Source: a phage. From it: DNA of 64,000 bases. A program made the position numbers and the translations under genes. Positions within the stretch are counted from its first letter, which is position 1; each line of letters opens with the position of its first letter. The DNA lies in the NCBI GenBank assembly GCA_028522875.1, contig GCA_028522875.1_3659.1. One strand, given 5' to 3'. Of this stretch, positions 34,829-48,222 are shown piece by piece. The notes under the pieces were generated by a model. It saw only the letters and a list, made by a program, of their open reading frames with translations, searched no databases and was not told where the DNA came from.

Positions 34829-36310
34829 TTACTTAGCGTACTCGATTAATTCCACAGTTTTCCCAAAGCTCGGGATATAATTTTTATTATACCCTTCGGT
34901 TAGAACCCATAAAGTATCGTACTTTTTCCACTTGTTGTCAACAGCCTTTTGTTCAAAGTTATGCTCAAAGTATAGGTCGGTCAGGACGATGACATCTTTT
35001 GCATTCGGTATGTTGGCATCCAGATACTCGAACACGCAAGCAGCTGTTGTGCCCCATGTTGAGTGGACCTCATAGTTAATCATCTCGTCTATGTTGCCGC
35101 GAGTGTATACTTTAACCTCTCCAACCTCAGTTGACCAACAGAACATTGTAACCTTAAACTCTTTATACAGATTGCACAATCCGGTGATTTCATTGAACAT
35201 TTTCTTTAAAGTTCTTTGAGAGATCGAGCCAGAAACGTCTAAAGCCACCACAATATCTATAGTGTTTTCCGGATTACGACCAGGAACAATAACGTGCTGG
35301 TTCTTGTTTATAGCCCCAACTTTTCGCATTGTGCTGGTCAAAGACCCAGATCGGCGACCAGGTTTTCTGTAGGTCAGTTCAGCCTTTCGTTTAGACAACA
35401 TGCGTTGCTTAATGATGTCTATATAGTTGATTACAGGCTTACCTCTGTTCTTGACAAACTCACGCACCGCCTCGGGGCAACGGCCTCCGGACGCTTGCAT
35501 TGCTGCCTCCAGCATATCACCAGAGTCCTGCATGGCCTGATCTTTATCAGATTGGCTGATTACAGGTTGTGGCTGATCATACCCCATAGCTTTTCCAAGA
35601 TCATCACTGGTGCCACCGTTCCCACTCATGTGATCATCTGTTTGTCGCTTATCACCTTGAGAGTTCTCACCTTTACCGTTCTTACTTTTACCGTTATTCT
35701 GATCTCTTTGCTTATCAAGAACTGCATAAACGTTCTCAGCAATCCATCCATGAAACTTCATATCGCAGTAGCAGCTGGCTAAGAAGCCAAAAGGCTTACC
35801 TTTCACGAACGTAGTGCTTTTCCCCTTCGGGAAGAAAACACAAGGAGGCTTGCTAAAGTCCACCACAAGTCCTGTGTTGATAACGTGATCACAAGCAATA
35901 TTGAACAGTTCCGGCTCAAAGCTTTTACCACGGACCAGGTGATCACAGATAATATGCCCCACCTCATGCGACAGAAGAAAGGCCACCTCTTTCACAGATT
36001 TGGGGGAATAGAAAACCTCAGCCATCTCAAACTGCTCGTCAGTTAGAGAAGCCTTAAGAATAGCCTTACGTTCATCAGCCAACCCCATAATGAACTCAGG
36101 ACTGTAATAGATGCGTTTATGGTCGGTTGCCATGGTGGAGCACCATGTATGGTTTTCTACGAACTGCAATCCTGACAGCAGTGTGCCATAAAACGGCAGC
36201 TTTTCAAGGAGATACATACGTGCAGCCTGCAACATTCTCAGGGCATCATCTTTTTGTGAGGCAATGATTTCTGAACTTCTGATATCCATTAAAACTCCAG
36301 AAGGGGCCAT
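34829..36310 (-). CDS. vWA domain protein with N-terminal HExxH metallopeptidase-like motif (DUF2201-like, MoxR partner type)
   Basis: 493 aa; HEVGHIICDH (HExxH); C-terminal vWA MIDAS motif DIVVALDVSGSIS (DxSxS); acidic/Gln-rich linker; start codon sits in a GC hairpin. Confidence 0.55.
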   Translation of the reverse strand: MAPSGVLMDIRSSEIIASQKDDALRMLQAARMYLLEKLPFYGTLLSGLQFVENHTWCSTMATDHKRIYYSPEFIMGLADERKAILKASLTDEQFEMAEVFYSPKSVKEVAFLLSHEVGHIICDHLVRGKSFEPELFNIACDHVINTGLVVDFSKPPCVFFPKGKSTTFVKGKPFGFLASCYCDMKFHGWIAENVYAVLDKQRDQNNGKSKNGKGENSQGDKRQTDDHMSGNGGTSDDLGKAMGYDQPQPVISQSDKDQAMQDSGDMLEAAMQASGGRCPEAVREFVKNRGKPVINYIDIIKQRMLSKRKAELTYRKPGRRSGSLTSTMRKVGAINKNQHVIVPGRNPENTIDIVVALDVSGSISQRTLKKMFNEITGLCNLYKEFKVTMFCWSTEVGEVKVYTRGNIDEMINYEVHSTWGTTAACVFEYLDANIPNAKDVIVLTDLYFEHNFEQKAVDNKWKKYDTLWVLTEGYNKNYIPSFGKTVELIEYAK

Positions 36311-36322
36311 TGGCCCCTGTCA

Positions 36323-37366
36323 TTATTTAACGTGTTTGAAAATACCTGCCAACTCGGTCATTGTCATGCGGGTGGTCTTCATAAGATCTGTCATAGCTTT
36401 CTCCATAATTGGAGATACTACCATAAAGTTTCCTTTAGTGAAACCTTTATTCCAGTCGGTCACCAACAGTGGTTTAAGTCCAGCTCCAAGACGTTCACCA
36501 GTTAAAGCACAGCATTTGCGAATATACGAACTCTTAAATTGGCTGAACGACAGATCAACTTTCATACCTACATCGTAGAACGTTTGACAATAGAAAGTGT
36601 AAGCTTTGGCAATCTCAACATCATCAGGTAGTGCAGGAACCTCTTCTGTAAGCTCCTCTTCGACCTCCTGAGTCTCTTTTTCCTCTTCATGCACCTGTTG
36701 CGTCATTTCTTCAATCTCTTCTGTGATAGGCTCGTTTACAATGTCGGAAATGTGCTTCTTGGGTGCACGATAAGTAACTTTAGACATCGGTAGCATATCT
36801 TCCTCCTCTTCTTCGTCAAAGAGTGCTAGTTTATCCTCTTCCGTTCCATATTGCAAGATGAAATCTTCAAAAGTATAATCACCTTTCAATTTCTCCATAC
36901 GCTCTTCGCTCAGGTGGAGCATCATCTGCTGGACAATTTTTCGATCAGTTTCGTCTTTAATCAAGACTGCAGTCTTTTTATCTACCAGACAGTCCTTTAG
37001 AGAGTTGCATCTCAATCCCACCACACAACAGTTATCAACCGCATAAGGACCTTCATCATCTATCCGCTCCAGAGATGGGTAGAAAGGATTTCCCAGCCCG
37101 TTTTCATCTGTGTGCATGTCAAAAGGTATAAGGGTATAGTCGCATACTCCATCTCCTAAAAGTTTTTTACCAAATAGGAGGTATTCTTCCCATGACAGGT
37201 CGAACTCTATATCTCGTTTCCGTGCATTATTCTGTTTGCGTCTATATTTTTTGAGCAAGCGCTCTAACTCTTCTGGTGTATAATATTTTTCAAGATTCAT
37301 GAGTCGTCTCTCGTGCTCTGTAAGTGAAGAAATCGTATCAATTGTCTCAACAGATGTCAACATCAA
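36323..37366 (-). CDS. HNH endonuclease (HNH_3-like His-Me finger) fused to acidic C-terminal region
   Basis: 347 aa; motif PSLERIDDEGPYAVDNCCVVGLRCNSLK resembles HNH_3 (s.dRId...gY...N...v....N..K); Glu-rich C-terminal half; internal MSKVTYRA repeated at start of gene 38631. Confidence 0.5.
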   Translation of the reverse strand: MMLTSVETIDTISSLTEHERRLMNLEKYYTPEELERLLKKYRRKQNNARKRDIEFDLSWEEYLLFGKKLLGDGVCDYTLIPFDMHTDENGLGNPFYPSLERIDDEGPYAVDNCCVVGLRCNSLKDCLVDKKTAVLIKDETDRKIVQQMMLHLSEERMEKLKGDYTFEDFILQYGTEEDKLALFDEEEEEDMLPMSKVTYRAPKKHISDIVNEPITEEIEEMTQQVHEEEKETQEVEEELTEEVPALPDDVEIAKAYTFYCQTFYDVGMKVDLSFSQFKSSYIRKCCALTGERLGAGLKPLLVTDWNKGFTKGNFMVVSPIMEKAMTDLMKTTRMTMTELAGIFKHVK

Positions 37367-37373
37367 AAACGTG

Positions 37374-37402
37374 TTGACTTTACTCTAACTCCACAATATA
37401 GT
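37374..37402 (+). promoter_or_regulatory. sigma70-like promoter TTGACT-17-TATAGT in divergent intergenic region
   Basis: -35 TTGACT 37374-37379, 17 nt spacer, -10 TATAGT 37397-37402; 40 nt upstream of ATG 37443. Confidence 0.5.
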
Positions 37403-37442
37403 GCACCCATTCGAAAGAAAACTAACATAGGAGCACTTACTT

Positions 37443-38342
37443 ATGGCAAATCTTAACAGTTTTAGTACGCGGTGGAAACAGGACATAACAACCAATCTTT
37501 CAGCTGGGGACATCCTTTCTGCAATTTACGAGGCTTTAGATGATAAAGCTACTTCAAAAGCGGTTTGTACCAACCCACTAATTCCTGTAGTGATGAAGGT
37601 TATTGAGCGCAGATTGGTATCTGGGTCTGATAAGTGGACATATTTAGATAATGAAGGACACACCTATTCCAATGGGTACGTCGATATAAAAGTAGAATAC
37701 GCGGTATCATACCGCCGGAGCGGTTCTGTAACTTTCAACTTCTCTGGAGGTTTTCGATCTCTGGCTACCTCACCTTTTGTTTCCTCAGAGGAGAAGTATG
37801 AGCTACCATTTCTTTGGATGATGGCTAACGCGACAGGAAAAACCCCCGTTAGCATCCGAGTAAAATACAACTACAACGGATCTAGTAAGATCTATGCCGA
37901 AAGTGTCTCAGCAAGTTTTTATTTTGTGATGGGGGATGGAATCCTCAAACATATAAAGATGTGCGATATGCATGATGTTATAAATGAAGTGACTGATAAG
38001 AATGTTCTAGTGAAAGACCTCAACAATTTTTATACACCCGGAGACTATTACGTCAGCCGTCCACTGTGCATCTTTAATGCCGCACACCCTCTAGGTGAGT
38101 ATTTGATCGCCAATAGCGATATTGCCAATAACCGCTTCGAGGTAGCAAGAGTTCAGAATGAGGTATTGACATCTTGCAAGAGCGGTGATAAGTTTACCGA
38201 AGAAGAGATGGGTGTTTTAGAAATGATGGGATATAAGTGTAGCCTTTGGGTAGATGAGGTGTTTAATGATTGCATCTATGGACAGGATATTTACCCATTA
38301 AAGAAGTATACTGATACAAGTTTAATTTATGCGAGGGTTTGA
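37443..38342 (+). CDS. hypothetical protein
   Basis: 299 aa; RBS aggagc; first gene of rightward early block. Confidence 0.5.
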   Translation: MANLNSFSTRWKQDITTNLSAGDILSAIYEALDDKATSKAVCTNPLIPVVMKVIERRLVSGSDKWTYLDNEGHTYSNGYVDIKVEYAVSYRRSGSVTFNFSGGFRSLATSPFVSSEEKYELPFLWMMANATGKTPVSIRVKYNYNGSSKIYAESVSASFYFVMGDGILKHIKMCDMHDVINEVTDKNVLVKDLNNFYTPGDYYVSRPLCIFNAAHPLGEYLIANSDIANNRFEVARVQNEVLTSCKSGDKFTEEEMGVLEMMGYKCSLWVDEVFNDCIYGQDIYPLKKYTDTSLIYARV

Positions 38343-38617
38343 CTATGATGAAGGCATGTGGTAATGTATATTACGTCGGTGAACATGTTCAGGCAGACAG
38401 TGTGTGGAAATCTATTAAGTCCACCACTGACGATGCCTTTCTGAGTGGACTATGTTTCCCCAATCCGGGAGACATCCTCCCCCATCCTGGAGATTTTGTT
38501 GTCAACAAGATGGACGGTTATACCGTGTGCCTGATGGTTGAAAAAATCTTTTTAGACACTAGACACAATCACCGTCTTGTGTTAAAATTTCAAGAATGTA
38601 AAATGACAATTGCCTAA
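38339..38617 (+). CDS. hypothetical small protein
   Basis: 92 aa; ATGA overlap with upstream gene. Confidence 0.4.
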   Translation: MTMMKACGNVYYVGEHVQADSVWKSIKSTTDDAFLSGLCFPNPGDILPHPGDFVVNKMDGYTVCLMVEKIFLDTRHNHRLVLKFQECKMTIA

Positions 38618-38630
38618 GGAGACCTTACCG

Positions 38631-38987
38631 ATGTCTAAAGTTACTTATCGTGCAGCTATTTACTGCAATGAACACCCAATCAATAATGATGGTCACTGCC
38701 TTTTTAAAGAAAATCAATTGGGCTGTATTGTCCTCCCTGATGAAGGGGAAGGTTATCTGATTGCATTGACAGGGTTTGAACCTGAGGCTCTGGAAGCCAA
38801 TCTGGACTACCTGGTAGAAGAGGGTGCTGCAGACCTGGTTGCCAATGGCCTCTCCATAAGCCTTGACGAAGTAGAGCGCTTCATGGGCAATTACCGTGTA
38901 GTGCGTGAGTTTACTATCGAGGTGGAAACTCCCGAGTGGAGTAGCACTGAAACTAATGCCGAAGAAAAAGAAGAGGAGGTAGAATAA
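38631..38987 (+). CDS. hypothetical acidic protein; start region duplicated (inverted) inside HNH gene
   Basis: ATG 38631 with RBS aaggag (track start 38610 less likely); N-terminus MSKVTYRA encoded by 29-nt sequence identical to 36764-36792 on opposite strand. Confidence 0.45.
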   Translation: MSKVTYRAAIYCNEHPINNDGHCLFKENQLGCIVLPDEGEGYLIALTGFEPEALEANLDYLVEEGAADLVANGLSISLDEVERFMGNYRVVREFTIEVETPEWSSTETNAEEKEEEVE

Positions 38988-39244
38988 TGAAAATACAGAT
39001 CTTGACTAATGCCGAGAAGATGTTTATTGAAGATACACCTTTTGAAGCTGGTGAGCTACAGTTCGTTTATTTTGTTGACTTAGATAAGGTGTTTCCTGCA
39101 CTGAATCTAGGTTTGGATGAAGTTCCTCATAAGGTTTTGTGCCAAGTTGTTCGTGCCTTAGCGGCAGAGGGGGAGTTCCACACCCTTCAAGATGTCCAGA
39201 CCTACGGGTATCTTGAACTACAACGAGAAGAAGAGGTGGACTGA
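38987..39244 (+). CDS. hypothetical protein
   Basis: 85 aa; ATGA overlap; acidic C-terminus. Confidence 0.4.
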   Translation: MKIQILTNAEKMFIEDTPFEAGELQFVYFVDLDKVFPALNLGLDEVPHKVLCQVVRALAAEGEFHTLQDVQTYGYLELQREEEVD

Positions 39245-39246
39245 TA

Positions 39247-39627
39247 ATGGCTCAGTGGAAGACAACAGTTGACCTTCATGATCAGTGGTTAGGACGCATC
39301 ACTGAAGACGGGAAGCTAGTGGAGTGGGACAATAAGCATGTTAGCGAGTTGGCAAGTATTGTGGCTGGCAAGTTACGCTCCAAGTTCCCTGAACAACTGG
39401 ATCCTGATAGTTCAAAGTTCGATCCTGAGTTGGAGGATGTTGTATACTACTTCGATACCGTGGATGACTACGATGCGTGGTTTGCAGCACGGGAGCTTTA
39501 CCCACAAGGCTCTGCTATGCGCCAGATGGAAGAAGATTATCCTCCGTGTGAGCAATTCAATAGTGCAATGACTTGCCTCTATGATTGGGCAGATAAGAAC
39601 CTTGTCTGGATTCGGACTGCATTTTAG
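39247..39627 (+). CDS. hypothetical protein
   Basis: 126 aa ORF in operon context. Confidence 0.45.
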   Translation: MAQWKTTVDLHDQWLGRITEDGKLVEWDNKHVSELASIVAGKLRSKFPEQLDPDSSKFDPELEDVVYYFDTVDDYDAWFAARELYPQGSAMRQMEEDYPPCEQFNSAMTCLYDWADKNLVWIRTAF

Positions 39628-39671
39628 TGGGCAGGAATGGCGGCAAGGATGCTGCTTAAGGAGTAGTAGAG

Positions 39672-39941
39672 ATGTTATACCAGCAATATGAACTTCGTGC
39701 AGAAAAAGAGTTAAATTTTGACAAAGATATTCACAGATATTATTATGGGAAAGTTAGAGGGCAAGCAAGAAAGTGTACTCCAACACTCTTTTATGCCAGC
39801 AGACGACTAGCGCCAGAAGAGGCAACAGCAGAAAGGGTTGCGTACAACTGGAGAGTCACGTATGATATTGACAGATTCGATGTGATATCTGTTTTGGAAA
39901 ACTTTGAAAACACTTACACACAAGTAGAGGACTTTTACTAA
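39672..39941 (+). CDS. hypothetical protein
   Basis: 89 aa; RBS aaggag. Confidence 0.45.
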   Translation: MLYQQYELRAEKELNFDKDIHRYYYGKVRGQARKCTPTLFYASRRLAPEEATAERVAYNWRVTYDIDRFDVISVLENFENTYTQVEDFY

Positions 39942-41125
39942 TGTCAAGAAACGTATTCGAAAGTGGTCAAATCACTGTCCGTGAGTTGCCAGCTATTATT
40001 CAGTTTGCCCAACGTCATAGCCGATCTGTCCTAATTTTGGGACCAATGGGTGTGGGTAAAAGCCAGGTGATGAAGCAGATCGCTGATAATATGTTCGGTG
40101 AGCGAGATGACAACCTTGTTGACGTGCGACTGTCAGATAAAGATCCTGCCGACTTATCTGGGCTACCTATCCCTGTAGAAGCGGATGGAACTACACGTAC
40201 AGTGTTTGCAATTCCAGAATTTTGGCCTGCGGATCCTGACTGGAGCGGAATTATCTTTCTGGATGAGCTCACTCATGCAGATAACTACCTGCAAAAGGTT
40301 GCAATGCAAATTATGCTTGACCACAAGTGCGGCACCTATGCATTCCCTAAGGGTTCTGTTTTTGTGGCTGCGGGTAACCGTTCTACAGATGGTGCGGTTC
40401 TTTCGGCGCTCGAAGCCCCTCTGGCTAACCGTTTTATCATTGTAGAGGTTACAAGCAATGCAGAGGTGTTTATTGAGGACTACGCATTCCTCAACGGGGT
40501 TCACTCCTCTGTAATTGGGTATCTGAAAAGAGTTCCATCAGCTATTGATAATTATGAGGCTATGGCTGAGATTAATTGTCCATCTTTTGCCACACCACGA
40601 TCTTGGGTTGCTGCATCTGACATCTTGCACGATTTTGACAGCGGTATTATTTCTGACGCTATGGCCCGTGTTCTTCTGCAAGGTGCTATTGGTCACACTG
40701 CAGCGGTAGAGATCTGGACATACCACACCAAGAAACGCAATTTACCGGAAATCGGTCGGATTATGGCAGGTGGCTGCAAAGAATACGTAGGTCCTAAGCA
40801 GCCAGACATTTTGTGGATTCTTGGATCTGAAGGTTGTATCGCTATTCGTAATATGATGGAAAATGCAAGTATCTCAGACGAAGATCTTGTCAGCTGCGTG
40901 GCAAACTTCCTCGATTTCCTTTGGGAAAACTTCAAGGACGAGAACCGAGATTTTGTATTCTCAGTCTTTATGGCGATGATGAAACCTAATGCCTTAGGAA
41001 ATGCCTTGCTTATAGGTAAAGGGCGTGACAAGATTGTTGCTCAGCTGATCAAAGCATACCCAAACCTGATGAAGATTGTAAAAGAGTTTGGTGAAGAGTT
41101 TAGCGCCATTTTGGCTAAAGCTTAA
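39941..41125 (+). CDS. MoxR-like AAA+ ATPase
   Basis: 394 aa; Walker A GPMGVGKS, Walker B IIFLDELTHAD, sensor/arginine region AAGNRSTDGAVLSALEAPLANRF typical of MoxR/RavA-type ATPases. Confidence 0.7.
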   Translation: MSRNVFESGQITVRELPAIIQFAQRHSRSVLILGPMGVGKSQVMKQIADNMFGERDDNLVDVRLSDKDPADLSGLPIPVEADGTTRTVFAIPEFWPADPDWSGIIFLDELTHADNYLQKVAMQIMLDHKCGTYAFPKGSVFVAAGNRSTDGAVLSALEAPLANRFIIVEVTSNAEVFIEDYAFLNGVHSSVIGYLKRVPSAIDNYEAMAEINCPSFATPRSWVAASDILHDFDSGIISDAMARVLLQGAIGHTAAVEIWTYHTKKRNLPEIGRIMAGGCKEYVGPKQPDILWILGSEGCIAIRNMMENASISDEDLVSCVANFLDFLWENFKDENRDFVFSVFMAMMKPNALGNALLIGKGRDKIVAQLIKAYPNLMKIVKEFGEEFSAILAKA

Positions 41126-41135
41126 GGGGGGTTGT

Positions 41136-41516
41136 ATGGCTAAAGTAGGTAAGCGGGGAAACTACCTGGTGGTATTGACCGAGGAGCCGGAGAAGGAGTA
41201 CGAATGCAGCTCCACTTGCGTGATCGATATCCGAGAAAAAGATGTAGATGAAATCTGGTTTAAAATATTGGACGCTTGCGATAGCAGTGATTATTTCTTC
41301 ATTTATGTCAACGATAAGGCTGGATTCTTCCATGACGACGGAGAGTTGCCGTATGAAATCTATGAACTTGTAGAGGCTTGCCATCGTGGAGATGCGGAGT
41401 TGTTTGGCCTACGGCTGAAAAGCGGTAAATTCTTCTATCAAGATGAGTGCATGAATCTTCATAACTTTGTAGAGGGAACTTGCAACGATGGAGAGATTTT
41501 GGCACACTACGATTAA
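41136..41516 (+). CDS. hypothetical protein
   Basis: ATG 41136 preceded by aagggggg (track start 41088 overlaps upstream gene). Confidence 0.45.
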   Translation: MAKVGKRGNYLVVLTEEPEKEYECSSTCVIDIREKDVDEIWFKILDACDSSDYFFIYVNDKAGFFHDDGELPYEIYELVEACHRGDAELFGLRLKSGKFFYQDECMNLHNFVEGTCNDGEILAHYD

Positions 41517-41529
41517 TTTCTAAGACCTC

Positions 41530-41556
41530 CCCCGCTTCGGCGGGGATTTTCTATTT
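41530..41556 (+). terminator. rho-independent terminator
   Basis: ccccgc-ttcg-gcgggg hairpin followed by attttctattt. Confidence 0.65.
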
Positions 41557-41565
41557 GGAGTCATT

Positions 41566-42066
41566 GTGAAAATTAAGATCTTTGCTATTATTTTGAGCGC
41601 ACTTTTATCGCTGCCTGTTGTTGCAGCACCAAAACAAAAAGTATATCATACTTGCAAGCCCTCAGATACTAAGGAAAACATTCTGGCATGCAATATCTAC
41701 AGGGAGGCTAGAGGGGATGGCACGATGGGTATGCTGGCATCAGGGTTTGCCACACTAAACAGGAAATCTCACCCCAAATACCCAGACACTATAAGAAAGA
41801 TTGTCTACCAACCTAACCAGTTTTCGTGGACAAACCACGGCAAAACTTTTAAGGTGACAGAAAAAGATTCATGGGATCACGCTAAAAGTCTTGCAAAGAT
41901 GCTTCTAAAGGTCTATAATAACAACCATGTTGCATACATGGCTATGGACATAACAGGTGGAGCAACACACTACCATACAACCAAAGTACGACCGAAATGG
42001 GCAAAAAAGATGCAGAGGACAGCTCAATTCGGGAGTCATATCTACTACAAGGAGCGCAATAAATGA
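41566..42066 (+). CDS. secreted cell wall hydrolase, SleB/Hydrolase_2-like, with N-terminal signal peptide
   Basis: GTG start with RBS ggag; signal-like N-terminus MKIKIFAIILSALLSLPVVAAP; motifs NIYREARGDG ... TLNR ... YPDTIRKIVYQPNQFSW typical of SleB-type hydrolases. Confidence 0.5.
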   Translation: MKIKIFAIILSALLSLPVVAAPKQKVYHTCKPSDTKENILACNIYREARGDGTMGMLASGFATLNRKSHPKYPDTIRKIVYQPNQFSWTNHGKTFKVTEKDSWDHAKSLAKMLLKVYNNNHVAYMAMDITGGATHYHTTKVRPKWAKKMQRTAQFGSHIYYKERNK

Positions 42067-44045
42067 TTGTAAACAGTAATGAAACTAAAGCAGTACTAAC
42101 CGGAAATATGGAGGTCACCAGGGGCTCAATTTCTCTGAACAAAGAGACTTTTGGGCTAATCATTAAAGGGATTTACGAAGATAAGGTGCTGGCAAGCTGC
42201 CGTGAACCAATCTTCAATGCTGTGGACTCCCATGTTGAGTCTGGACGGGGTGATGTACCGATCATCATTCACTCTCCTACAGACCTTGAACCATACTTCT
42301 TTGTGCAGGACGTTGGATTGGGCATGTCGGAAGAGATGGTCCGCAACACTTTCATGAACCTCGGGGAGTCAACCAAGCGCAACAGCAACGCTCTGGTAGG
42401 TAATAAAGGTGTAGGTTCAAAGGCCCCGTTCAGCATGGTGGACACTTTCGATGTGATCAGTGTGCACAACGGTGTTGAAAGCACATATCTGTTGTTCTTG
42501 GATCAGGGTATCCCAAACGTTACCAAGATCCGCGAGCGAAAGACTGAAGAGCACAACGGGGTAAAAGTTCAGTTCCATGTTAAGAAAGAGCATGTTCTGA
42601 AATATCGCACTGCTATTGCGTCATGCCTACGCTATGCAAAGTTTCCGTTTACCGTTACCGACCCTATGACCAGTAAGATGCTGGAAGGTGACAAGGTTGA
42701 GGCGCAGTATCGCTACGAGAAAGATGGTTGGAAAATGACTATCCTGAAAGGTTATACCAGCTCTGATGAGAGCCGTGTGGTGATGGGACACCAACCTTAC
42801 CGCTCTAAGTTTCTGGAAACATTGACAGACTACCCTGCAATCTGTGTAGAGATCCCTATCGGGGATTGCAATATTAACCCTGGGCGCGAATGGACCATAG
42901 AGGGGCACGACGATGGTGGATTCCAGGATCGCCTGGAGGCCTTTGTCAAAGAAGGTATACGTCTTCGTGGGGCAGAAGTTGTTGCGGAATTGGAGACAGC
43001 AAAAACATCCTCAGAAGCACGTGAGATGATGAAGAACAGTGGAGTGTTCGGACACATCTTCGGCAAAAACTTTATGTGGAACCGTTGGGAAGAAACAGGG
43101 CTTGGCGACTTAGGCGATTGTGAAATTTTCGCTGGCGGCTTAAATAAAGGCCGCATAGGCTATGCTCGTTACGGAAAGTCGGAGTTCTTACGAGGTGTAT
43201 ACCTTGTATTTAACGACGGAGACGGCAAATATAACCGAAATAAGTGTAACTACTTAAGCGAGATCACCGGACGCAACGTTTTCTATTGCCGTAACACGGA
43301 TCTGATGGAAGAGTTTAAAGAAGCGGCACACCACCCGTTCTTTGCAGATACGGTCAAATTGTTATCAGAGCTCCCTCGCCGTCCTGTAAAGAAAGGTGAA
43401 ACAAAAACTCACTATGAGCCAGGGTATTGGGTTAAAAAACTTGAGAAAGATGGTTACTTCCGTCGTGAGCGTATTACTAAGGCAGAGTTCAAGAAGATTA
43501 AGCACTGCATTCCTTATGAGGGTGATATCCAACGTGGAAGTTGTTGGCTGGGACAGCTAAGTAACATCTACCAGCAAAATTATGACCGTGTGCGTGCGGC
43601 ACTCCAGATTCCTGAAGGGGAAGATCTGTACCTGGTATCAGAATCTCGTCTGCTTTGGACTGATCCTGATTGCCAGTATGTTACAGAGAAAAATGTGGAA
43701 CATTTGTTGAAAGAGGATGCCTGGAAATTCTTACTGACTCGCGCAGCAAATGAAACTTCATATGACAGCCTGTATAGACAATTAGGGAAAATTATCCCCA
43801 TGCAAGATTTTGGAAATTATCGGCCACATTTCCACAAGTGGGAAGGTAACACCGCGTGGAAGCACAGTGAGCTAAATCATCGTGCCAAAATCTTAATCGC
43901 CAACCGAGTCAAGTGCGGGAAGGCCTATATTGCAAGATTGGAAAAGAAATATCCACTTTTGAAGCATGTGGGCTTGAAATATTGGGACACTCCTGCTATG
44001 ATTGAATACCGTGAACTGATCGACGCAAAGAATAACACCAAATAA
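42063..44045 (+). CDS. rIIA-like protein with N-terminal GHKL (Bergerat-fold) ATPase domain
   Basis: 660 aa; N-box REPIFNAVDSH, G1 DVGLGM, G2 GNKGVGSKA; large gene followed by second gene as in rIIA-rIIB pairs. Confidence 0.5.
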   Translation: MIVNSNETKAVLTGNMEVTRGSISLNKETFGLIIKGIYEDKVLASCREPIFNAVDSHVESGRGDVPIIIHSPTDLEPYFFVQDVGLGMSEEMVRNTFMNLGESTKRNSNALVGNKGVGSKAPFSMVDTFDVISVHNGVESTYLLFLDQGIPNVTKIRERKTEEHNGVKVQFHVKKEHVLKYRTAIASCLRYAKFPFTVTDPMTSKMLEGDKVEAQYRYEKDGWKMTILKGYTSSDESRVVMGHQPYRSKFLETLTDYPAICVEIPIGDCNINPGREWTIEGHDDGGFQDRLEAFVKEGIRLRGAEVVAELETAKTSSEAREMMKNSGVFGHIFGKNFMWNRWEETGLGDLGDCEIFAGGLNKGRIGYARYGKSEFLRGVYLVFNDGDGKYNRNKCNYLSEITGRNVFYCRNTDLMEEFKEAAHHPFFADTVKLLSELPRRPVKKGETKTHYEPGYWVKKLEKDGYFRRERITKAEFKKIKHCIPYEGDIQRGSCWLGQLSNIYQQNYDRVRAALQIPEGEDLYLVSESRLLWTDPDCQYVTEKNVEHLLKEDAWKFLLTRAANETSYDSLYRQLGKIIPMQDFGNYRPHFHKWEGNTAWKHSELNHRAKILIANRVKCGKAYIARLEKKYPLLKHVGLKYWDTPAMIEYRELIDAKNNTK

Positions 44046-44055
44046 GGAGACAGCT

Positions 44056-45261
44056 ATGATTTTCATCTACGAACATTTCAAAACTCGTAAAGAAGCACGC
44101 GACCGCCGTGCAGAACTTGAGAAGAAGGGTTTCACATGTGCTATTGAGAAAGGTACTACAACATGGACACTGGCAGTAGGTGCCCCAGAGCTGTTTGATC
44201 CTGACCGAGACAGTGTCTGCTATACCCGTGAGGATTTTGAAACCCGCGAAGAGGCACGTTTATTCCGCTACGGACTGGAAGACAACGGTAAGTACGCCAT
44301 GATCTTAGATTCAGGTGAAGGTTCCGTTAAACGTTGGGGCGTGGTATACCCACTGTGTGTTGTTCACGGTGTGGGGTTCACTGGGGTAGCAATCAAGTCA
44401 GAAGAACCTTTAGTAGAAGTCAAAGATCCGGTGCTGGAAGTGGTGAGCAGTGTGTCTCAGCAACAGTCTCGAAGCATCGAGCCTTTGGTAGTTATTTGCG
44501 GGGAACTCCTCCAGATCACCTGCAACGAAGGCATTTTTGAAATTCGCCGCAGCGAAAGTGAGGAAGTTTACCAGAAAGTCTTCGACCATATTTCTGTTCA
44601 GGAATATGATGAGGCAATTGGTGAAATCCTTGTCTGGCTGGAACGCAAGAATGAGTTCACCACACTTGCAGACAACCTGATCATGAAAGATGGTAAGCTC
44701 TACTACTACGGTGTAGAGATGCGATCCACCATTGCAAAGAAAATTGAGGAAGATTATGTAGATGGAACACTGGACGACCGATATGTTAAATTCCTTGTCC
44801 GTCTGCTACGCAACCCGTCTGCAAAATCTGTGAACATGCTCTACGATTTCATGCAGGCTAATGACATCCAGGTTGCAGAAGATGGTCGAATCATTTGCTA
44901 TAAGGGGGTTCAGTTTAACGGGAGCAGGTGGGTGGATTGGCACAGCGGTAAAGTTCCACAATACCAGGGTGCTTTTGTGTCCATGCCTCGTAACTTTGTA
45001 GAAGATGATCCGGAAGCTGCGTGTTCTTATGGCCTGCACTGCGCCAGCAAAGAGTATGCAGCGGGCTATGGCACTGTAATGATGGTTATGGTTGACCCTG
45101 CGGATGTGGTTAGTGTGCCATACCAACACAACAGTGCTAAGTGCCGTGCATGCCGCTACGAAATCGTAGCAGCACCGGAATCACGCAAAGATGGCGATCC
45201 GATTGAATACGTAGTTGACCGTGATGGTAACATCATCGACATTATCTACGAGGAGGCGTAA
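44056..45261 (+). CDS. hypothetical protein (rIIB-like by position only)
   Basis: 401 aa directly downstream of rIIA-like gene; RBS aaggag; no motif recognised. Confidence 0.3.
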   Translation: MIFIYEHFKTRKEARDRRAELEKKGFTCAIEKGTTTWTLAVGAPELFDPDRDSVCYTREDFETREEARLFRYGLEDNGKYAMILDSGEGSVKRWGVVYPLCVVHGVGFTGVAIKSEEPLVEVKDPVLEVVSSVSQQQSRSIEPLVVICGELLQITCNEGIFEIRRSESEEVYQKVFDHISVQEYDEAIGEILVWLERKNEFTTLADNLIMKDGKLYYYGVEMRSTIAKKIEEDYVDGTLDDRYVKFLVRLLRNPSAKSVNMLYDFMQANDIQVAEDGRIICYKGVQFNGSRWVDWHSGKVPQYQGAFVSMPRNFVEDDPEAACSYGLHCASKEYAAGYGTVMMVMVDPADVVSVPYQHNSAKCRACRYEIVAAPESRKDGDPIEYVVDRDGNIIDIIYEEA

Positions 45262-46631
45262 TGGAAAAAGGGCAGTATGACGTAGGCACAGATGCTGCCC
45301 TCATTGCAATCATGAGCGGTGAGAATGTCTTCGTTTCAGGACCTGCAGGTTGTGGGAAGACGTATCTCATCAACATGATCCAGTCAATGTATGGAGACTC
45401 TTGCATAACGGTTGCCCCGACAGGGGTAGCCGCTTTAAACGTTAATGGAGCAACAGCACACCGAACATTCGATCTTGCAGCAGGTGTGAGCATGGAGTCG
45501 GACTGGACTGCAATAAGGGCAAAAACAGCAAAGCCTTTGAAAAGCAAGGCATTTACCATCCTAATTATCGATGAAATCTCTATGATCCGTGCTGATAAGT
45601 TTATAGAGATGGATAGGAAACTCCGCTTCCTTCGAAAAAATGACAAACCTTTCGGAGGCATACAGGTCATATTGTTTGGCGATTTTTACCAAGCACCTCC
45701 TGTTGTCTCTTCTATGGAGAAGGAAGCCTACTTCAACTTCTACCATACGGACCTGTGTTGCTATACCGAATCTTGGAAAGAACTTGACCTCCACAACATA
45801 GCCCTAGTAGATCAGTTCCGACAGGAGTCTATTCGATTTGCCACAATGCTCAACTGTGTTCGTGAGGGTCGTCGCATAAAAGAGGTTGTAGCAGAACTTA
45901 ATGCTCGTTGTTACAAAGGCGGTGTACCAACAGACGCTCTCACAATTTGCGCCACCAACAAACAAGCGGAGGAAGTGAACAGAAGGTTCTATGATGCCAT
46001 CAACGCCCCAGAAAAGGTATACACTGGTGAAATGAAGGGTAAGTTTCCCTCCACCCTGCCAGTTGAGCAGGAGATGAAGTTGAAAATTGGCATGAAAGTT
46101 ATGATAACCGCCAACGATGTTGACCCGACGCACAAAGTACCTTATTATGTTAACGGAACACGTGCCACAATTGTTAAATTTAAGAACAAGGCGGTGGTGG
46201 TAGAGCTTGAAGATGGAACACAGGTTGACATAGAACAGAGGTTGTGGGAGAATAACGAGTATAAGCCATCTCAAAGATACAACATTGCAGAAAGGAAGAT
46301 GGAGAAGTTTATAGAGAGGGTAGTGATTGGATCATACAAGCAACTTCCTCTGAAATCTGGGTATGCCGTAACATCTCATAAAAGTCAAGGACTTACGCTA
46401 GATTGTTACAACCTGGACCTTGGAAAGAACGGAGCTTTCTCTCCTGGGATGACGTATGTTGCTTTGAGTCGAGTTAAGACAATACAAGGGATAAACTTGT
46501 TGCGTCCACTAAGAGAAGTTGATATTATTGTTGACCCGAGAGTCGTAGAGTTTTACAATACAACATTCCCTGACTTAGACAAAATTGTCAGGAAAGATTT
46601 TGAAACCAGAGCAGAAGAGGGGGACGTATGA
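45261..46631 (+). CDS. Dda-like SF1 DNA helicase (RecD/Pif1 family)
   Basis: Walker A GPAGCGKT, Walker B ILIIDEISM, C-terminal motif VTSHKSQGLTLD ... ALSRV characteristic of Dda/RecD-type helicases. Confidence 0.7.
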   Translation: MEKGQYDVGTDAALIAIMSGENVFVSGPAGCGKTYLINMIQSMYGDSCITVAPTGVAALNVNGATAHRTFDLAAGVSMESDWTAIRAKTAKPLKSKAFTILIIDEISMIRADKFIEMDRKLRFLRKNDKPFGGIQVILFGDFYQAPPVVSSMEKEAYFNFYHTDLCCYTESWKELDLHNIALVDQFRQESIRFATMLNCVREGRRIKEVVAELNARCYKGGVPTDALTICATNKQAEEVNRRFYDAINAPEKVYTGEMKGKFPSTLPVEQEMKLKIGMKVMITANDVDPTHKVPYYVNGTRATIVKFKNKAVVVELEDGTQVDIEQRLWENNEYKPSQRYNIAERKMEKFIERVVIGSYKQLPLKSGYAVTSHKSQGLTLDCYNLDLGKNGAFSPGMTYVALSRVKTIQGINLLRPLREVDIIVDPRVVEFYNTTFPDLDKIVRKDFETRAEEGDV

Positions 46632-46969
46632 GTTTGTGGAGAAATATAGTTAACTACGTGTGTGGCAATCCAACTCCTGAAGAGAAGGATGTTGTGATTC
46701 ACGATTTTACTAAAAGATCTCGTGAAAAAGACCTACTGCTAACAAAGGTGACTGATAAAGATCCTGCAGTAGGGGACTGGGCAGGTTTTGCGTTTACATC
46801 GGACAAATACACCTTTAACAAAGGTGACTATCTTGTTGTAGATTTTAACGAAGACATTGATGGTGCTGAACCTTACTATCAGACCCTTATTATTGCAGGG
46901 TGCGTTGATCTCTCTGCAGGCATGCACAGTTTGATTCTTTTTGAGCTTGACTCTGAAGACCTTCAGTAG
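46628..46969 (+). CDS. hypothetical protein
   Basis: 113 aa; ATGA overlap with helicase gene. Confidence 0.45.
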   Translation: MSLWRNIVNYVCGNPTPEEKDVVIHDFTKRSREKDLLLTKVTDKDPAVGDWAGFAFTSDKYTFNKGDYLVVDFNEDIDGAEPYYQTLIIAGCVDLSAGMHSLILFELDSEDLQ

Positions 46970-47029
46970 TAAGATGTTAGTCTAAAGGGGAGGCACTCCT
47001 CCCCACAAAAACTAAGGAAGCACTAAACG

Positions 47030-47332
47030 ATGAAACGTTATAAACCGTACACTTTTGAAATCGATTTCGAACTTGACGATATGTTTACTGTGGAAGCTCA
47101 AGCAGTTGTCCAGTTGCCAGACTCGGAGTGCCGTGACTCTGATGTTGACTATTACGGATTTAGACAAATTACCGATGTGCGTGTTTACCACAACGGTGAA
47201 GAGGTGGACTTCCACCAACTGCCAAACGATATGCGCCACTCAATTTACAAACGTGCAGCCCGTGAACTAGAGTCCTATCTGGATGCAGCGACGACAGCAG
47301 CTGCATTTGCTGAAGAAGTTGGAGGTTTCTGA
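47030..47332 (+). CDS. hypothetical protein
   Basis: 100 aa; RBS ctaaggaag. Confidence 0.45.
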   Translation: MKRYKPYTFEIDFELDDMFTVEAQAVVQLPDSECRDSDVDYYGFRQITDVRVYHNGEEVDFHQLPNDMRHSIYKRAARELESYLDAATTAAAFAEEVGGF

Positions 47333-47727
47333 TGATTACAGGTGTGAAGATTATCCAATACCACTTAACCAAATTAGAAGATGCTGAAAAAGAGCTTGCA
47401 GAAGTTCTGAATAGTGGATATACTTTGCTATCATGCGCCTGCTCAGATACCTACGCTGTGTGGACACTTATCCGGAAGGAAGAGCCTGCATGGACCTTGG
47501 TGCCAAACCCTAAGATTATTAGTGAGGTGGATGACTACCCTCAGGACGGCCTACCAGAAGACTGGGAAGTATGGGAAGGTGGTGAAAACCCTGCACCAGG
47601 TAAGTGGGTAAAATATAAACTACGTGGTGGTGCACAGTACGCTGACTACTCTGATAACCTAGACTGGAGTCATTCTTCACTAGGATCGTCTGCAAGTTCA
47701 TATGATATCGTTGCTTTTCAGGAATAA
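47332..47727 (+). CDS. hypothetical protein
   Basis: 131 aa; ATGA overlap. Confidence 0.45.
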   Translation: MITGVKIIQYHLTKLEDAEKELAEVLNSGYTLLSCACSDTYAVWTLIRKEEPAWTLVPNPKIISEVDDYPQDGLPEDWEVWEGGENPAPGKWVKYKLRGGAQYADYSDNLDWSHSSLGSSASSYDIVAFQE

Positions 47728-47739
47728 GGAGAAGGTGGT

Positions 47740-48222
47740 ATGTCAGATTTTATGTGGAAAGTTGGTTATTCCTCCCCTGAAATGTGTAAGGCCTGTTTTG
47801 TGAAAATAGGTCGCGAAGATATCGACAAAGTGATCCTTAAGTTTCGTGATGTGGCTGTGATCGGCAACCGAGTGCTTAAGCACTTAAAGAATCTGAAGCT
47901 CACCAAAAAGAAATTCTTCGGACTTTTCGAAGAGAAAGTTGATGCTTGGACCCATTGCATTCAGGAAGCTAAATCTCACTACAGTGCTATCGTTACCCCA
48001 GAACGGGTAGCCAAGATGGAAGGACTCATCAACAGCACAGAGTTTGAGTGTCTGAAAGCTGCGCTCGATAGTTATCCGAAATGCCTCAAGCACTTGGACA
48101 AGTATGTAGAAAAGGATGGGGAAATGTATCTCACCCTGGACGCATACTATGAGATGCAAGAAATTTTAAATTTAGATTTGACATTGGTATCCACCGAGTA
48201 TACAATAGGTATCCGGGTTTAA
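47740..48222 (+). CDS. hypothetical protein
   Basis: 160 aa; RBS aaggagaagg. Confidence 0.45.
   Translation: MSDFMWKVGYSSPEMCKACFVKIGREDIDKVILKFRDVAVIGNRVLKHLKNLKLTKKKFFGLFEEKVDAWTHCIQEAKSHYSAIVTPERVAKMEGLINSTEFECLKAALDSYPKCLKHLDKYVEKDGEMYLTLDAYYEMQEILNLDLTLVSTEYTIGIRV

Follow-up and report, generated by a model that had tools for sequence, protein, structure and literature searches.

A SleB-like hydrolase with a predicted signal peptide, encoded next to rIIA, is a probable second wall-degrading enzyme of rV5-like phages

Sec-dependent export of a muralytic enzyme before lysis is known from Lys44 of phage fOg44 and from the SAR endolysins P1 Lyz and phage 21 R, each of which is the sole endolysin of its phage. 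Enzymes of the Lys44 type stay inactive until the membrane is de-energised. SAR domains are Gly/Ala/Ser-rich, remain uncleaved and are attached to lysozyme-type domains. Bacillus SleB is specific for the muramic-delta-lactam of the spore cortex, and E. coli has no muramic-delta-lactam. CwlJ is a single-domain homologue of SleB, and the catalytic Glu of SleB is essential (PMC12331253).

Within the Vequintavirinae, gene 2 of phage rV5 has been labelled 'cell wall hydrolase' since 2013. The 2020 paper on Pectobacterium phage CB7 reported the hydrolase to be conserved in all Vequintavirinae genera, predicted a signal peptide for the CB7 orthologue and noted, as 'data not shown', toxicity of this protein on its expression in E. 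coli (PMC7344957). The toxicity remark was the only experiment found in the literature on the hydrolase or its close orthologues, and no phage Hydrolase_2 protein with enzymology was found in the literature searched. The endolysin Lysqdvp001 is not a Hydrolase_2 protein, being PG_binding_1 plus CHAP according to a review. The gene and its signal peptide are already known, the former being annotated in more than 100 genomes and the latter published; established here are the family to which the protein belongs, its intact catalytic signature and modelled fold, the conservation of its export signal, the setting of the gene and the purifying selection acting on it.

The locus described here lies in a 64,000-nucleotide stretch of phage DNA (contig GCA_028522875.1_3659.1), referred to as the window. 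The phage is a Vequintavirus. About 12 kb checked around the hydrolase gene is near-identical to phage naswa, in which naswa_94 is annotated 'cell wall hydrolase'; over positions 41400-42100 there are 0 nucleotide differences, and the hydrolase is identical to naswa_94. The product of rV5 gene 2 likewise has 166 aa and belongs to the same Pfam family, and its gene takes the same position before rIIA. Further orthologues are CB7_83 and CR3_087 of Cronobacter phage CR3, and at least 116 phage records carry an intact copy with 95% identity or more. The features of the locus are listed below; L014 denotes an orthologous locus with 78% DNA identity.

41530..41556, + strand: hairpin resembling an intrinsic terminator, with T-rich tail, directly 5' of the hydrolase RBS (found by search, then folded)
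41557..41560, + strand: Shine-Dalgarno sequence GGAG, 5 nt 5' of the GTG, kept in L014 and other orthologues
41566..42066, + strand: coding sequence of the secreted Hydrolase_2 (SleB/CwlJ-family) protein, 166 aa, GTG start, orthologue of rV5 gene 2 and naswa_94
41566..41625, + strand: predicted Sec signal peptide, residues 1-20, cut VVA/AP (hydrophobicity and AxA rule)
41653..41691, + strand: Cys30 codon (41653-41655) to Cys42 codon (41689-41691); these two, the only Cys of the protein, probably form a disulfide
41704..41706, + strand: codon of Glu47, the predicted catalytic glutamate, in the motif Y-R-E-A-R-G, invariant in 159/159 aligned family members
42050..42066, + strand: rIIA RBS AGGAG (42050-42054) inside the hydrolase 3' end and ATGA overlap (42063-42066), both kept in L014
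42063..44045, + strand: rIIA-like gene, 660 aa, HATPase_c_3 domain (Pfam; PHROG 612, E 2e-124)
44056..45261, + strand: rIIB-like gene, 401 aa (PHROG 609, E 2.4e-60)

The first-pass annotation, made from the sequence alone, had described the product as a SleB-like hydrolase with a signal peptide, and the Pfam match, Glu47, the structural model and the Sec-type N-terminus all agree with that description. Residues 51-161 match Pfam PF07486 Hydrolase_2 at 70.4 bits (E 2.1e-19; gathering cut-off 27) and cover profile positions 2-100 of 100, and the PHROG 938 'endolysin' profile matches as well (E 1.6e-27). The family was sampled by a word-indexed protein search, which gave 10 relatives only, by an exhaustive search and by tblastn against phage records. 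In the resulting alignment R66, Q85-F86-S87-W88, W145 and H158 are kept like Glu47; the second acid of the common E-A-R-G-E motif is Asp in the hydrolase, compared with 119 Glu, 30 Gln and 6 Asp across the family.

An AlphaFold2 model of the hydrolase (mean pLDDT 88.4) was compared with the PDB using Foldseek. The SleB structures 4f55 and 4fet were retrieved with probability 1.00 and TM 0.72-0.78 (target-normalised), all other matches lying at E > 2; as modelled, the fold is that of the SleB catalytic domain. Glu47 is aligned with the Glu of Y-G-E-S-R-G(E) in both structures, a position that, by arithmetic on construct lengths, we take to be that of the catalytic Glu of SleB. Pfam family, fold and position of the catalytic Glu are as in Bacillus SleB and CwlJ, whereas identity to SleB in the structural alignment amounts to 21-24%. 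Both Pfam and the model indicate a single domain after the signal peptide, a layout resembling that of CwlJ. [quoted passage not shown] Since the host has no muramic-delta-lactam cortex, the substrate of the hydrolase must differ from that of SleB.

In the family alignment Cys30 and Cys42 occur together in 29 sequences and Cys30 alone in 0, and every sequence with Cys42 (42/42) carries another Cys at most 20 residues upstream. The co-variation of the pair fits a disulfide, as expected in an oxidising compartment. In the mature part, the window and L014 differ by 53 synonymous and 22 non-synonymous codon changes; judged from such counts, this part is under strong purifying selection.

Signal peptide and cleavage site were assigned by rule and not with a trained predictor. 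The N-terminus reads MKIKIFAIILSALLSLPVVA, followed after the predicted cut by APKQK. A basic n-region with K2 and K4 precedes a Leu/Ile-rich h-region of 15 residues; Pro stands at -5 and the small residues V18/A20 at -3/-1. The h-region, IFAIILSALLSLPVV, is short and strongly hydrophobic (Kyte-Doolittle 2.69, 15-residue window), and a cut after A21 is disfavoured because Pro would then stand at +1. Over residues 1-20 the pLDDT of the model is low, at 51-57. Compared with L014, the signal segment has 9 non-synonymous and 5 synonymous codon changes, evolving faster than the rest while keeping its n-h-c layout. The same layout ending in AxA was present in 7/7 orthologues and relatives examined (36-81% identity), and AxA-ending signals span Vequintavirus, the Klebsiella, Salmonella and Cronobacter Vequintavirinae, and phi92-like and T5-like phages despite sequence divergence. 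Moreover, the N-terminus is hydrophobic in 147/160 family sequences (150 closest cluster representatives and 10 word-search matches), far more than expected by chance. The N-terminus of the PAK_P3 homologue looks anchor-like, in contrast to that of the rV5-type hydrolase.

By rule, the segment is not of the SAR type, which is uncleaved, weakly hydrophobic and Gly/Ala/Ser-rich; instead, a conserved AxA site comes after a short, Leu/Ile-rich h-region. In silico, it corresponds to the cleavable Sec signal that Lys44 carries on a muralytic enzyme, and its conservation in orthologues sets the hydrolase apart from cytoplasmic endolysins, which have no export signal. From these features we infer that the signal is cleaved and that the hydrolase resides in the periplasm. 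Unlike Lys44 and the SAR endolysins, the hydrolase is the second enzyme of its phage rather than the sole endolysin.

Upstream of the gene, the hairpin CCCCGC-TTCG-GCGGGG occupies 41530-41545; its 6-bp stem is entirely GC, and ATTTTCTATT comes after it. An equivalent hairpin with a different stem sequence occupies the same place in L014, and one was found 5' of the hydrolase gene in 6/6 Vequintavirinae loci examined, including P8734, SSBI34, A73 and L015; the structure has been kept via compensatory changes. The sequence-only reading had credited the gene with its own terminator. The hairpin is indeed real and conserved, but it terminates the upstream genes and does not serve the hydrolase. 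No sigma-70-like promoter was found between terminator and start codon, and a weak TTGCAA/CACACT candidate 5' of the hairpin was dismissed by eye. A candidate internal promoter was noted at 41891-41919. Rfam families gave no match in 36000-48000. The position of the terminator implies that the hydrolase gene of this phage is transcribed by read-through only. GTG or TTG starts are found in 6/11 hydrolase homologues checked, compared with 4/53 genes in the naswa region. The adjoining terminator, the lack of a promoter after it and the frequent GTG/TTG starts are indirect signs of low expression. Directly upstream of the orthologues in SSBI34 and the phi92-like VEcB there are sigma-70-like promoters, which would give host-polymerase (early) expression. 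Vequintavirus transcriptome or expression data were not found in a literature search.

The rV5 paper describes a non-structural transcription unit, genes 10-1-238-164, that includes the hydrolase gene. Because this unit also encodes a helicase, a primase and a DNA polymerase, the label 'early region' is reasonable, and the placement of the gene directly before rIIA is borne out. So is the overlap of stop and start codons, the rIIA ATG (42063-42065) lying over the hydrolase TGA (42064-42066). The rIIB orthologue of L015 matches PF26926 Phage_T4_rIIB. The 126-aa gene upstream of the hydrolase gene is listed as a T5.083 homologue in a table of the rV5 paper, and no similarity was detected between it and the genes that precede the homologues of T5-like, phi92-like and Klebsiella phages. 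An antisense ORF at 41942-42163 with two hydrophobic segments was rejected, as it has no RBS and is interrupted by a stop in L014.

The downstream neighbour differs among relatives. Whereas rIIA follows in the window, Certrevirus and some other Vequintavirinae have a small, holin-like gene with two transmembrane segments in its place, often overlapping the hydrolase gene by 4 nt. Seunavirus-like phages have a small two-transmembrane gene followed by rIIA/rIIB. No holin-like gene adjoins the hydrolase gene in Vequintavirus. Compared across genera, these small membrane proteins are not detectably similar to one another or to any ORF of naswa or the window, except that those of P8734 and Csp-D17 look alike by eye. 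The phi92-like and T5-like homologues are without any membrane-protein neighbour, so a lysis-module context is not general.

A separate endolysin is encoded elsewhere in phages of this type. In naswa, naswa_11 is a 156-aa lambda-R-type lysin (PDB 1am7 match, E 3e-56), and Rz-like spanins adjoin the terminase in phages of this genus. LysECP26, a homologue of naswa_11, was purified and active, and reportedly shares 98% identity with the lysin of rV5 (PMC9728275). Lambda R and LysECP26 resemble the hydrolase, as predicted, in being small single-domain glutamate-dependent wall glycosidases, but they belong to unrelated folds and families. LysECP26 has no export signal and depends on membrane permeabilisation for access to the wall, whereas the hydrolase has a signal peptide. 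The naswa lysin and spanins fall outside the naswa stretch that matches the window, and tblastn of the naswa lambda-type lysin, i-spanin and small membrane protein against the whole window gave no match, extending to its full length the earlier remark that no holin or spanin gene was recognised nearby. The hydrolase gene is therefore not part of a cluster in which a sole or principal lysis enzyme accompanies holin and spanins, as near-identical genomes have lysin and spanins at other places. Together, the separate lambda-R-type lysin and spanins leave the hydrolase as at most an accessory lysin. The suggestion that it may be a signal-peptide endolysin survives only in a weak sense: the hydrolase would be exported, but a lambda-R-type endolysin exists besides. 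The hydrolase gene belongs to the core of rV5-like phages, is probably non-virion, and would encode a second wall-degrading enzyme beside the lambda-type endolysin.

As to its role, we give about an even chance to a low-level, Sec-exported, holin-independent auxiliary wall-cutting enzyme, most likely a lytic transglycosylase. The gene would be transcribed together with rIIA/rIIB and the replication genes. The protein would be synthesised with a cleavable Sec signal peptide, exported to the periplasm and cut by signal peptidase I after Ala20, and would form a Cys30-Cys42 disulfide. It would then be in place in the periplasm before lysis, at a low, tolerated level, and at lysis would weaken the wall or help to clear it. 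The contribution to lysis is suggested by the two-transmembrane holin-like gene that comes next in other Vequintavirinae, and the combination of hydrolase and small membrane protein in these sister genera resembles the pairing of SAR endolysin and pinholin. In Vibrio phage VEN, gp51 shares the Hydrolase_2 catalytic domain (motif H-E-A-R-G-E) but lacks an export signal, and its gene lies in a classical lysis cassette at the genome end rather than in an rII/replication block. It adjoins a unimolecular-spanin-like protein with, as read from sequence, a lipoprotein box and a C-terminal membrane segment, and the arrangement looks like a true lysis cassette. Against an auxiliary lysin, premature lysis should be a risk if an active, freely soluble muralytic enzyme were in the periplasm from an early stage of infection, and the absence of a holin-like neighbour in Vequintavirus, and of any membrane-protein neighbour in phi92-like and T5-like phages, also speaks against it.

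We regard as possible but rather unlikely a non-lytic early role in the periplasm, with peptidoglycan being remodelled or nicked in the course of infection and no contribution to final lysis. Superinfecting phages might thereby be excluded or disturbed, cells might be able to enlarge, envelope-spanning phage complexes such as spanins might be let through the wall, or anhydromuropeptides might be released. Consistent with such a role, the gene belongs to the replication/rII transcription unit and is distant from lysin and spanins, the SSBI34 and VEcB orthologues have their sigma-70-like promoters, the T5-like and PAK_P3-like homologues lie among early/DNA-metabolism genes in phages that have other endolysins, and the signs of low expression would suit a dosed remodelling enzyme. 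However, no phage precedent for a secreted lytic transglycosylase used in this way was found in the literature searched, an early position is compatible with lysis, the holin and lysozyme genes of T5-like phages also being in the early region, and the holin-like neighbours in sister genera point to lysis. A hydrolase serving as the principal endolysin, Sec-exported and holin-independent like Lys44 of Oenococcus phage fOg44, is very unlikely: although PHROG 938 and several GenBank records call the protein 'endolysin', the orthologue is toxic on expression and a signal peptide would account for the lack of any firmly identified holin in the genus, the lambda-R-type lysin is conserved in the genus and lytic as LysECP26 (PMC9728275), the curated LL12 and rV5 annotations give the endolysin name to the lambda-type gene and not to the SleB-like gene, and two lytic proteins per genome are the rule in related groups.

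We consider it highly improbable that the hydrolase is a virion-associated lysin for crossing the wall at DNA injection. Muralytic domains are common in phage tails, and the PHROG 938 profile, at 2185 positions, implies that some members are parts of large proteins, but here a 166-aa stand-alone protein with a predicted cleavable Sec signal peptide is encoded among non-structural genes, and a gp25-like baseplate lysozyme candidate is present in these phages. Furthermore, the mass-spectrometry table of CB7 virions does not list CB7_83 (PMC7344957), and gp2 does not figure where the main text of the rV5 paper names virion proteins. Equally hard to credit is a relic, decaying or without catalytic activity, or a protein that binds peptidoglycan but does not hydrolyse it. 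The Asp at the second acid of E-A-R-G-E might hint at decay, but Glu47 is retained along with every other near-invariant position, and the strong purifying selection on the mature part, the many intact records and the toxicity of the orthologue all argue against it.

In a further reading, the hydrolase and the following gene would form a second Sec-dependent module for lysis or lysis timing, ancestral to the Vequintavirinae, with rIIA/rIIB holding off premature lysis; we think this improbable. Most genera would have kept a small two-transmembrane holin- or pinholin-like partner, whereas in Vequintavirus the small gene would have been lost and rIIA joined to the hydrolase gene by the stop/start overlap. 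By keeping the membrane energised, rIIA/rIIB would prevent the pre-placed periplasmic enzyme from triggering premature lysis.

For those seeking the lysis gene of these therapeutic phages, the 'endolysin' label given by pipelines is misleading. In rV5-like, phi92-like, T5-like and PAK_P3-like phages, a secreted SleB-like enzyme is encoded in the early/replication region besides the normal endolysin. If this enzyme is at work in the periplasm ahead of holin firing, it would bear on lysis timing in phages without a recognised holin, on the choice of enzymes for Gram-negative enzybiotics and on what the rII proteins guard against. Should the ancestral module prove true, the long-unexplained rII proteins would gain a concrete client.

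The window belongs to a Vequintavirus, an rV5-like coliphage. The 6 kb surrounding the hydrolase gene shares 99.7% identity with Escherichia phage naswa and is matched by 123 records. Between approximately 35 and 47.5 kb, window and naswa align base for base with few differences (none at 41400-42100); outside this interval they are not collinear position by position. The hydrolase, naswa_94 ('cell wall hydrolase'), is already known and annotated. Its rV5 orthologue, gene 2, was entered in 2013 as a 166-aa 'cell wall hydrolase' (PF07486) lying immediately 5' of rIIA. The 2020 paper on Pectobacterium phage CB7 (PMC7344957) described a SleB-like protein conserved across all Vequintavirinae genera, carrying a signal peptide in CB7 and toxic on expression in E. 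coli (data not shown in that paper). In Certrevirus, which lacks rIIA and rIIB, the SleB-like gene is followed by an overlapping gene for a 65-aa candidate holin with two transmembrane segments (PMC7344957). Given the rV5 listing and the CB7 paper, both the observation and its main interpretation were already in print. In the DNA search, 16 'Campylobacter phage' records, 15 of them with Campylobacter jejuni as host (e.g. MG065635, MG065655 and MG065647), also reached at least 90% identity; two of these unannotated records are 96-99% identical to E. coli Vequintaviruses over these 6 kb, and mislabelling or contamination from the propagation host seems likely.

Features around the hydrolase gene (window coordinates)
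37300-37443, divergent intergenic region separating an Srd-like anti-sigma gene (-) from the gene that opens the rII/replication unit (+)
39941-41125, +, MoxR/AAA-type ATPase gene (PHROG 1297), upstream of the hydrolase gene
41136-41516, +, gene for an acidic 126-aa protein (PHROG 12370), just 5' of the hydrolase gene
41530-41556, +, terminator-like hairpin, 6-pair all-GC stem and T-rich tail, ending 1 base 5' of the ribosome-binding site
41557-41560, +, hydrolase ribosome-binding site GGAG, 5 nt 5' of the start codon
41566-42066, +, SleB-like hydrolase coding sequence, 166 codons, GTG start
42063-42066, +, ATGA overlap of the hydrolase stop (TGA) and the next gene's start (ATG), with AGGAG 8 nt upstream

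ORF and profile searches bear out the gene as placed by the first-pass annotation, in coordinates and SleB-like product. The product hits Pfam PF07486 (Hydrolase_2, cell wall hydrolases of the SleB/CwlJ type) at 70.4 bits (cut-off 27), as well as PHROG 938, labelled 'endolysin'. Its sole matches in a PDB sequence search are the Bacillus SleB catalytic domains 4f55 and 4fet, whose Y-G-E-S-R-G aligns with Y-R-E47-A-R-G of the phage protein. An AlphaFold2 model built from a small alignment (mean pLDDT 88.4) is confident except for residues 1-20, and its only significant Foldseek neighbours in the PDB are SleB domains (probability 1.00, target-normalised TM 0.72-0.78). An exhaustive profile search gave 11,355 clusters of the family; in an alignment of the best 150 of these, 10 word-search hits and the query, Glu47 is invariant (159/159). 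The phage protein also keeps the remaining near-invariant positions, R66, Q85-F86-S87-W88, W145 and H158, and by these residues the enzyme appears intact. The protein is not a spore SleB equivalog (NCBIfam, 48 bits against a cut-off of 236.5) and, in contrast to spore SleB, lacks the N-terminal peptidoglycan-binding domain, which brings its layout closer to that of CwlJ.

The signal peptide proposed in the first-pass annotation is likewise predicted here, judged by rule and by conservation among orthologues and relatives. The N-terminus reads MKIKIFAIILSALLSLPVVA/APKQK (slash, predicted cut), and its elements are two lysines, a Leu/Ile-rich core of 15 residues, proline at -5 and Val/Ala at -3/-1. 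A cut one residue further on is disfavoured, since it would leave Pro at +1, a residue that signal peptidase I rejects there. The same layout ending in AxA recurs in all orthologues and relatives examined, at 36-81% identity: a second Vequintavirus lineage, Klebsiella phage P8734, Salmonella phage SSBI34, Escherichia phage A73, the phi92-like phages VEcB and REC, and one T5-like phage. Their ends and next residues are VLA/K, ALA/K, AQA/E, AKA/E, SQA/S, TYA/K and SFA/A. Comparison with an orthologue of 78% DNA identity gives 9 non-synonymous and 5 synonymous changes in the signal-peptide codons, against 22 and 53 in the mature part; such a contrast is typical of a functional signal peptide ahead of a constrained domain. 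The N-terminus is hydrophobic in 147 of the 160 family sequences fetched. Most family members have 2 or 4 cysteines in the mature part, and Cys30 and Cys42, the only ones in the phage protein, co-vary (both present, n=29; Cys30 alone, n=0), which would fit a periplasmic disulfide. The segment does not resemble a SAR domain: it is short and strongly hydrophobic, and a predicted cleavage site follows. The PAK_P3 homologue, unlike the window's hydrolase, has an anchor-like N-terminus.

As previously noted for the window, a terminator-like structure precedes the gene. In the 78%-identical orthologue the hairpin's structure is kept and its sequence is not, and equivalent hairpins lie 5' of the hydrolase gene in P8734, SSBI34, A73 and a metagenomic relative. 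SSBI34 carries a near-consensus sigma-70 promoter (TTGACA-16-TATACT) inside the hairpin, and VEcB a promoter after it. In the window no promoter-like site was found between hairpin and start codon, and since its hairpin has none in or after it, transcription of the hydrolase gene appears to depend on read-through. GTG or TTG starts occur in 6 of 11 homologues checked; 4 of the 53 genes in the corresponding naswa region have non-ATG starts. In this small sample, such starts together with the terminator suggest that selection keeps down the expression of a dangerous protein.

Hydrolase genes with a GTG or TTG start (start position)
Window, 41566
78%-identical Vequintavirus orthologue (L014), 1106
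Metagenomic relative (L015), 5001
P8734 (L004), 4917
Other comparison loci: L007, 3899; L008, 3899

Downstream, the reported overlap with the rIIA-like start is present, and both ATGA and AGGAG are kept in the 78%-identical orthologue. The rIIA-like gene is followed by a rIIB-like gene and a Dda/PIF1-like helicase gene. A sigma-70-like site inside the hydrolase gene (41891-41919, +; TTGCAA-17-TATAAT, 10/12 matches) could be an independent promoter for rIIA/rIIB; the orthologue retains the -35 hexamer and has TACACT at -10, and such sites are no more numerous in the whole scan than expected by chance. [quoted passage not shown] The rV5 table lists the 126-aa protein as a T5.083 homologue; its gene shows no synteny with the SleB-like gene across the T5-like, phi92-like and Klebsiella phage loci compared. 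An antisense ORF across the hydrolase/rIIA junction (41942-42163, -; 73 aa, two hydrophobic segments) is most likely spurious, since a ribosome-binding site is lacking and a stop breaks the frame in the orthologue.

In Vequintavirinae other than Vequintavirus, a small membrane protein gene comes next after the hydrolase gene; none directly follows it in the window's phage.

Small genes downstream of the hydrolase gene in relatives
A73 (L010 4435-4647, +): 70 aa, two membrane segments, overlapping the hydrolase gene by 4 nt; then helicase
SSBI34 (L005 5432-5662, +): 76 aa, unannotated, 4-nt overlap; then helicase
P8734 (L004 5452-5607, +): 51 aa, unannotated, 4 nt past the hydrolase stop; then rIIA, rIIB
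Csp-D17 (L006 about 5452-5625, +): protein resembling that of P8734 by eye, same position; the record, which has no annotation, stops here
Metagenomic relative (L015 5583-5813, +): 76 aa, 63-nt gap; then rIIA, rIIB

These proteins, of 51-76 aa with two hydrophobic segments, often a 4-nt overlap and in some cases a charged C-terminus, are candidate holins or pinholins. They share no detectable similarity between genera, and holins usually do not. The neighbours of the phi92-like and T5-like homologues are soluble, non-membrane proteins, pointing to a membrane-protein partnership specific to Vequintavirinae; the PAK_P3 homologue has genes for ligase, DprA and helicase around it.

In related groups a genome often carries two genes of lytic type: the early region of T5-like phages contains a lysozyme, a holin and, at a distance, a SleB-domain gene, and Phapecoctavirus has a Phage_lysozyme and a Hydrolase_2 protein. 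In Vibrio phage VEN, a Hydrolase_2 protein without a signal lies beside a protein read as spanin-like, an arrangement showing that in a Gram-negative phage this domain can serve as a true endolysin. The spanin-like VEN gp50 (L012 2159-2476, +; 'hypothetical protein', directly 5' of the endolysin gene) combines a lipoprotein box (SVSAC) at the N-terminus with a membrane segment at the C-terminus, by sequence the layout of a unimolecular spanin. That the window's hydrolase is likewise the principal endolysin is nevertheless unlikely, as the rV5 and LL12 papers assign this function to another gene, with spanins adjoining terminase and no firm holin. That gene is naswa_11, encoding a 156-aa lambda R homologue (PDB 1am7, E 3e-56), and its purified rV5-like homologue LysECP26 lyses Gram-negative cells (PMC9728275). 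Naswa also carries an Rz-like i-spanin. Counterparts of these lysin and spanin genes were found nowhere in the window, which explains why the first-pass annotation saw no holin or spanin nearby. Its reading of a signal-peptide endolysin is partly supported, the predicted exported wall enzyme being most likely an accessory one. Directly after the lambda-type lysin gene, outside the window, naswa_10 (L003 5008-5214, -) encodes 68 aa with one strongly hydrophobic N-terminal segment (PHROG 4641), and is a possible candidate for the holin of rV5-like phages or for a different accessory of their lysis.

A virion lysin is also unlikely: the mass-spectrometry table of the CB7 virion does not list the orthologue CB7_83, and the main text of the rV5 paper does not name gp2 as a virion protein. 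Retention of Glu47 and the other near-invariant positions, with the synonymous excess in the mature part, speaks against a dead relic, again unlikely. The main rival is a non-lytic function in early remodelling or exclusion, and the evidence separates it poorly from a lytic one.

Since the lambda-type endolysin and spanins do the canonical work, the hydrolase is most likely an auxiliary enzyme. The sequence analysis establishes the enzyme's family and fold, its catalytic signature, the conservation of its export signal, the selection acting on it and its gene context; we infer its dosage, location, cleavage and role as follows. Made in low amounts from an early/middle transcription unit, it would leave the cytoplasm through Sec, lose its signal peptide after Ala20 and acquire the disulfide by oxidation. 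As a soluble periplasmic enzyme it would cleave glycan strands in a Glu-dependent manner, weakening the wall beforehand or hastening its clearance at lysis, independently of the holin. Linkage to either a holin-like gene or rIIA/rIIB suggests that the enzyme acts in step with the state of the inner membrane. The recurrence of membrane proteins and rII beside it amounts to a modest lead and falls short of a discovery.
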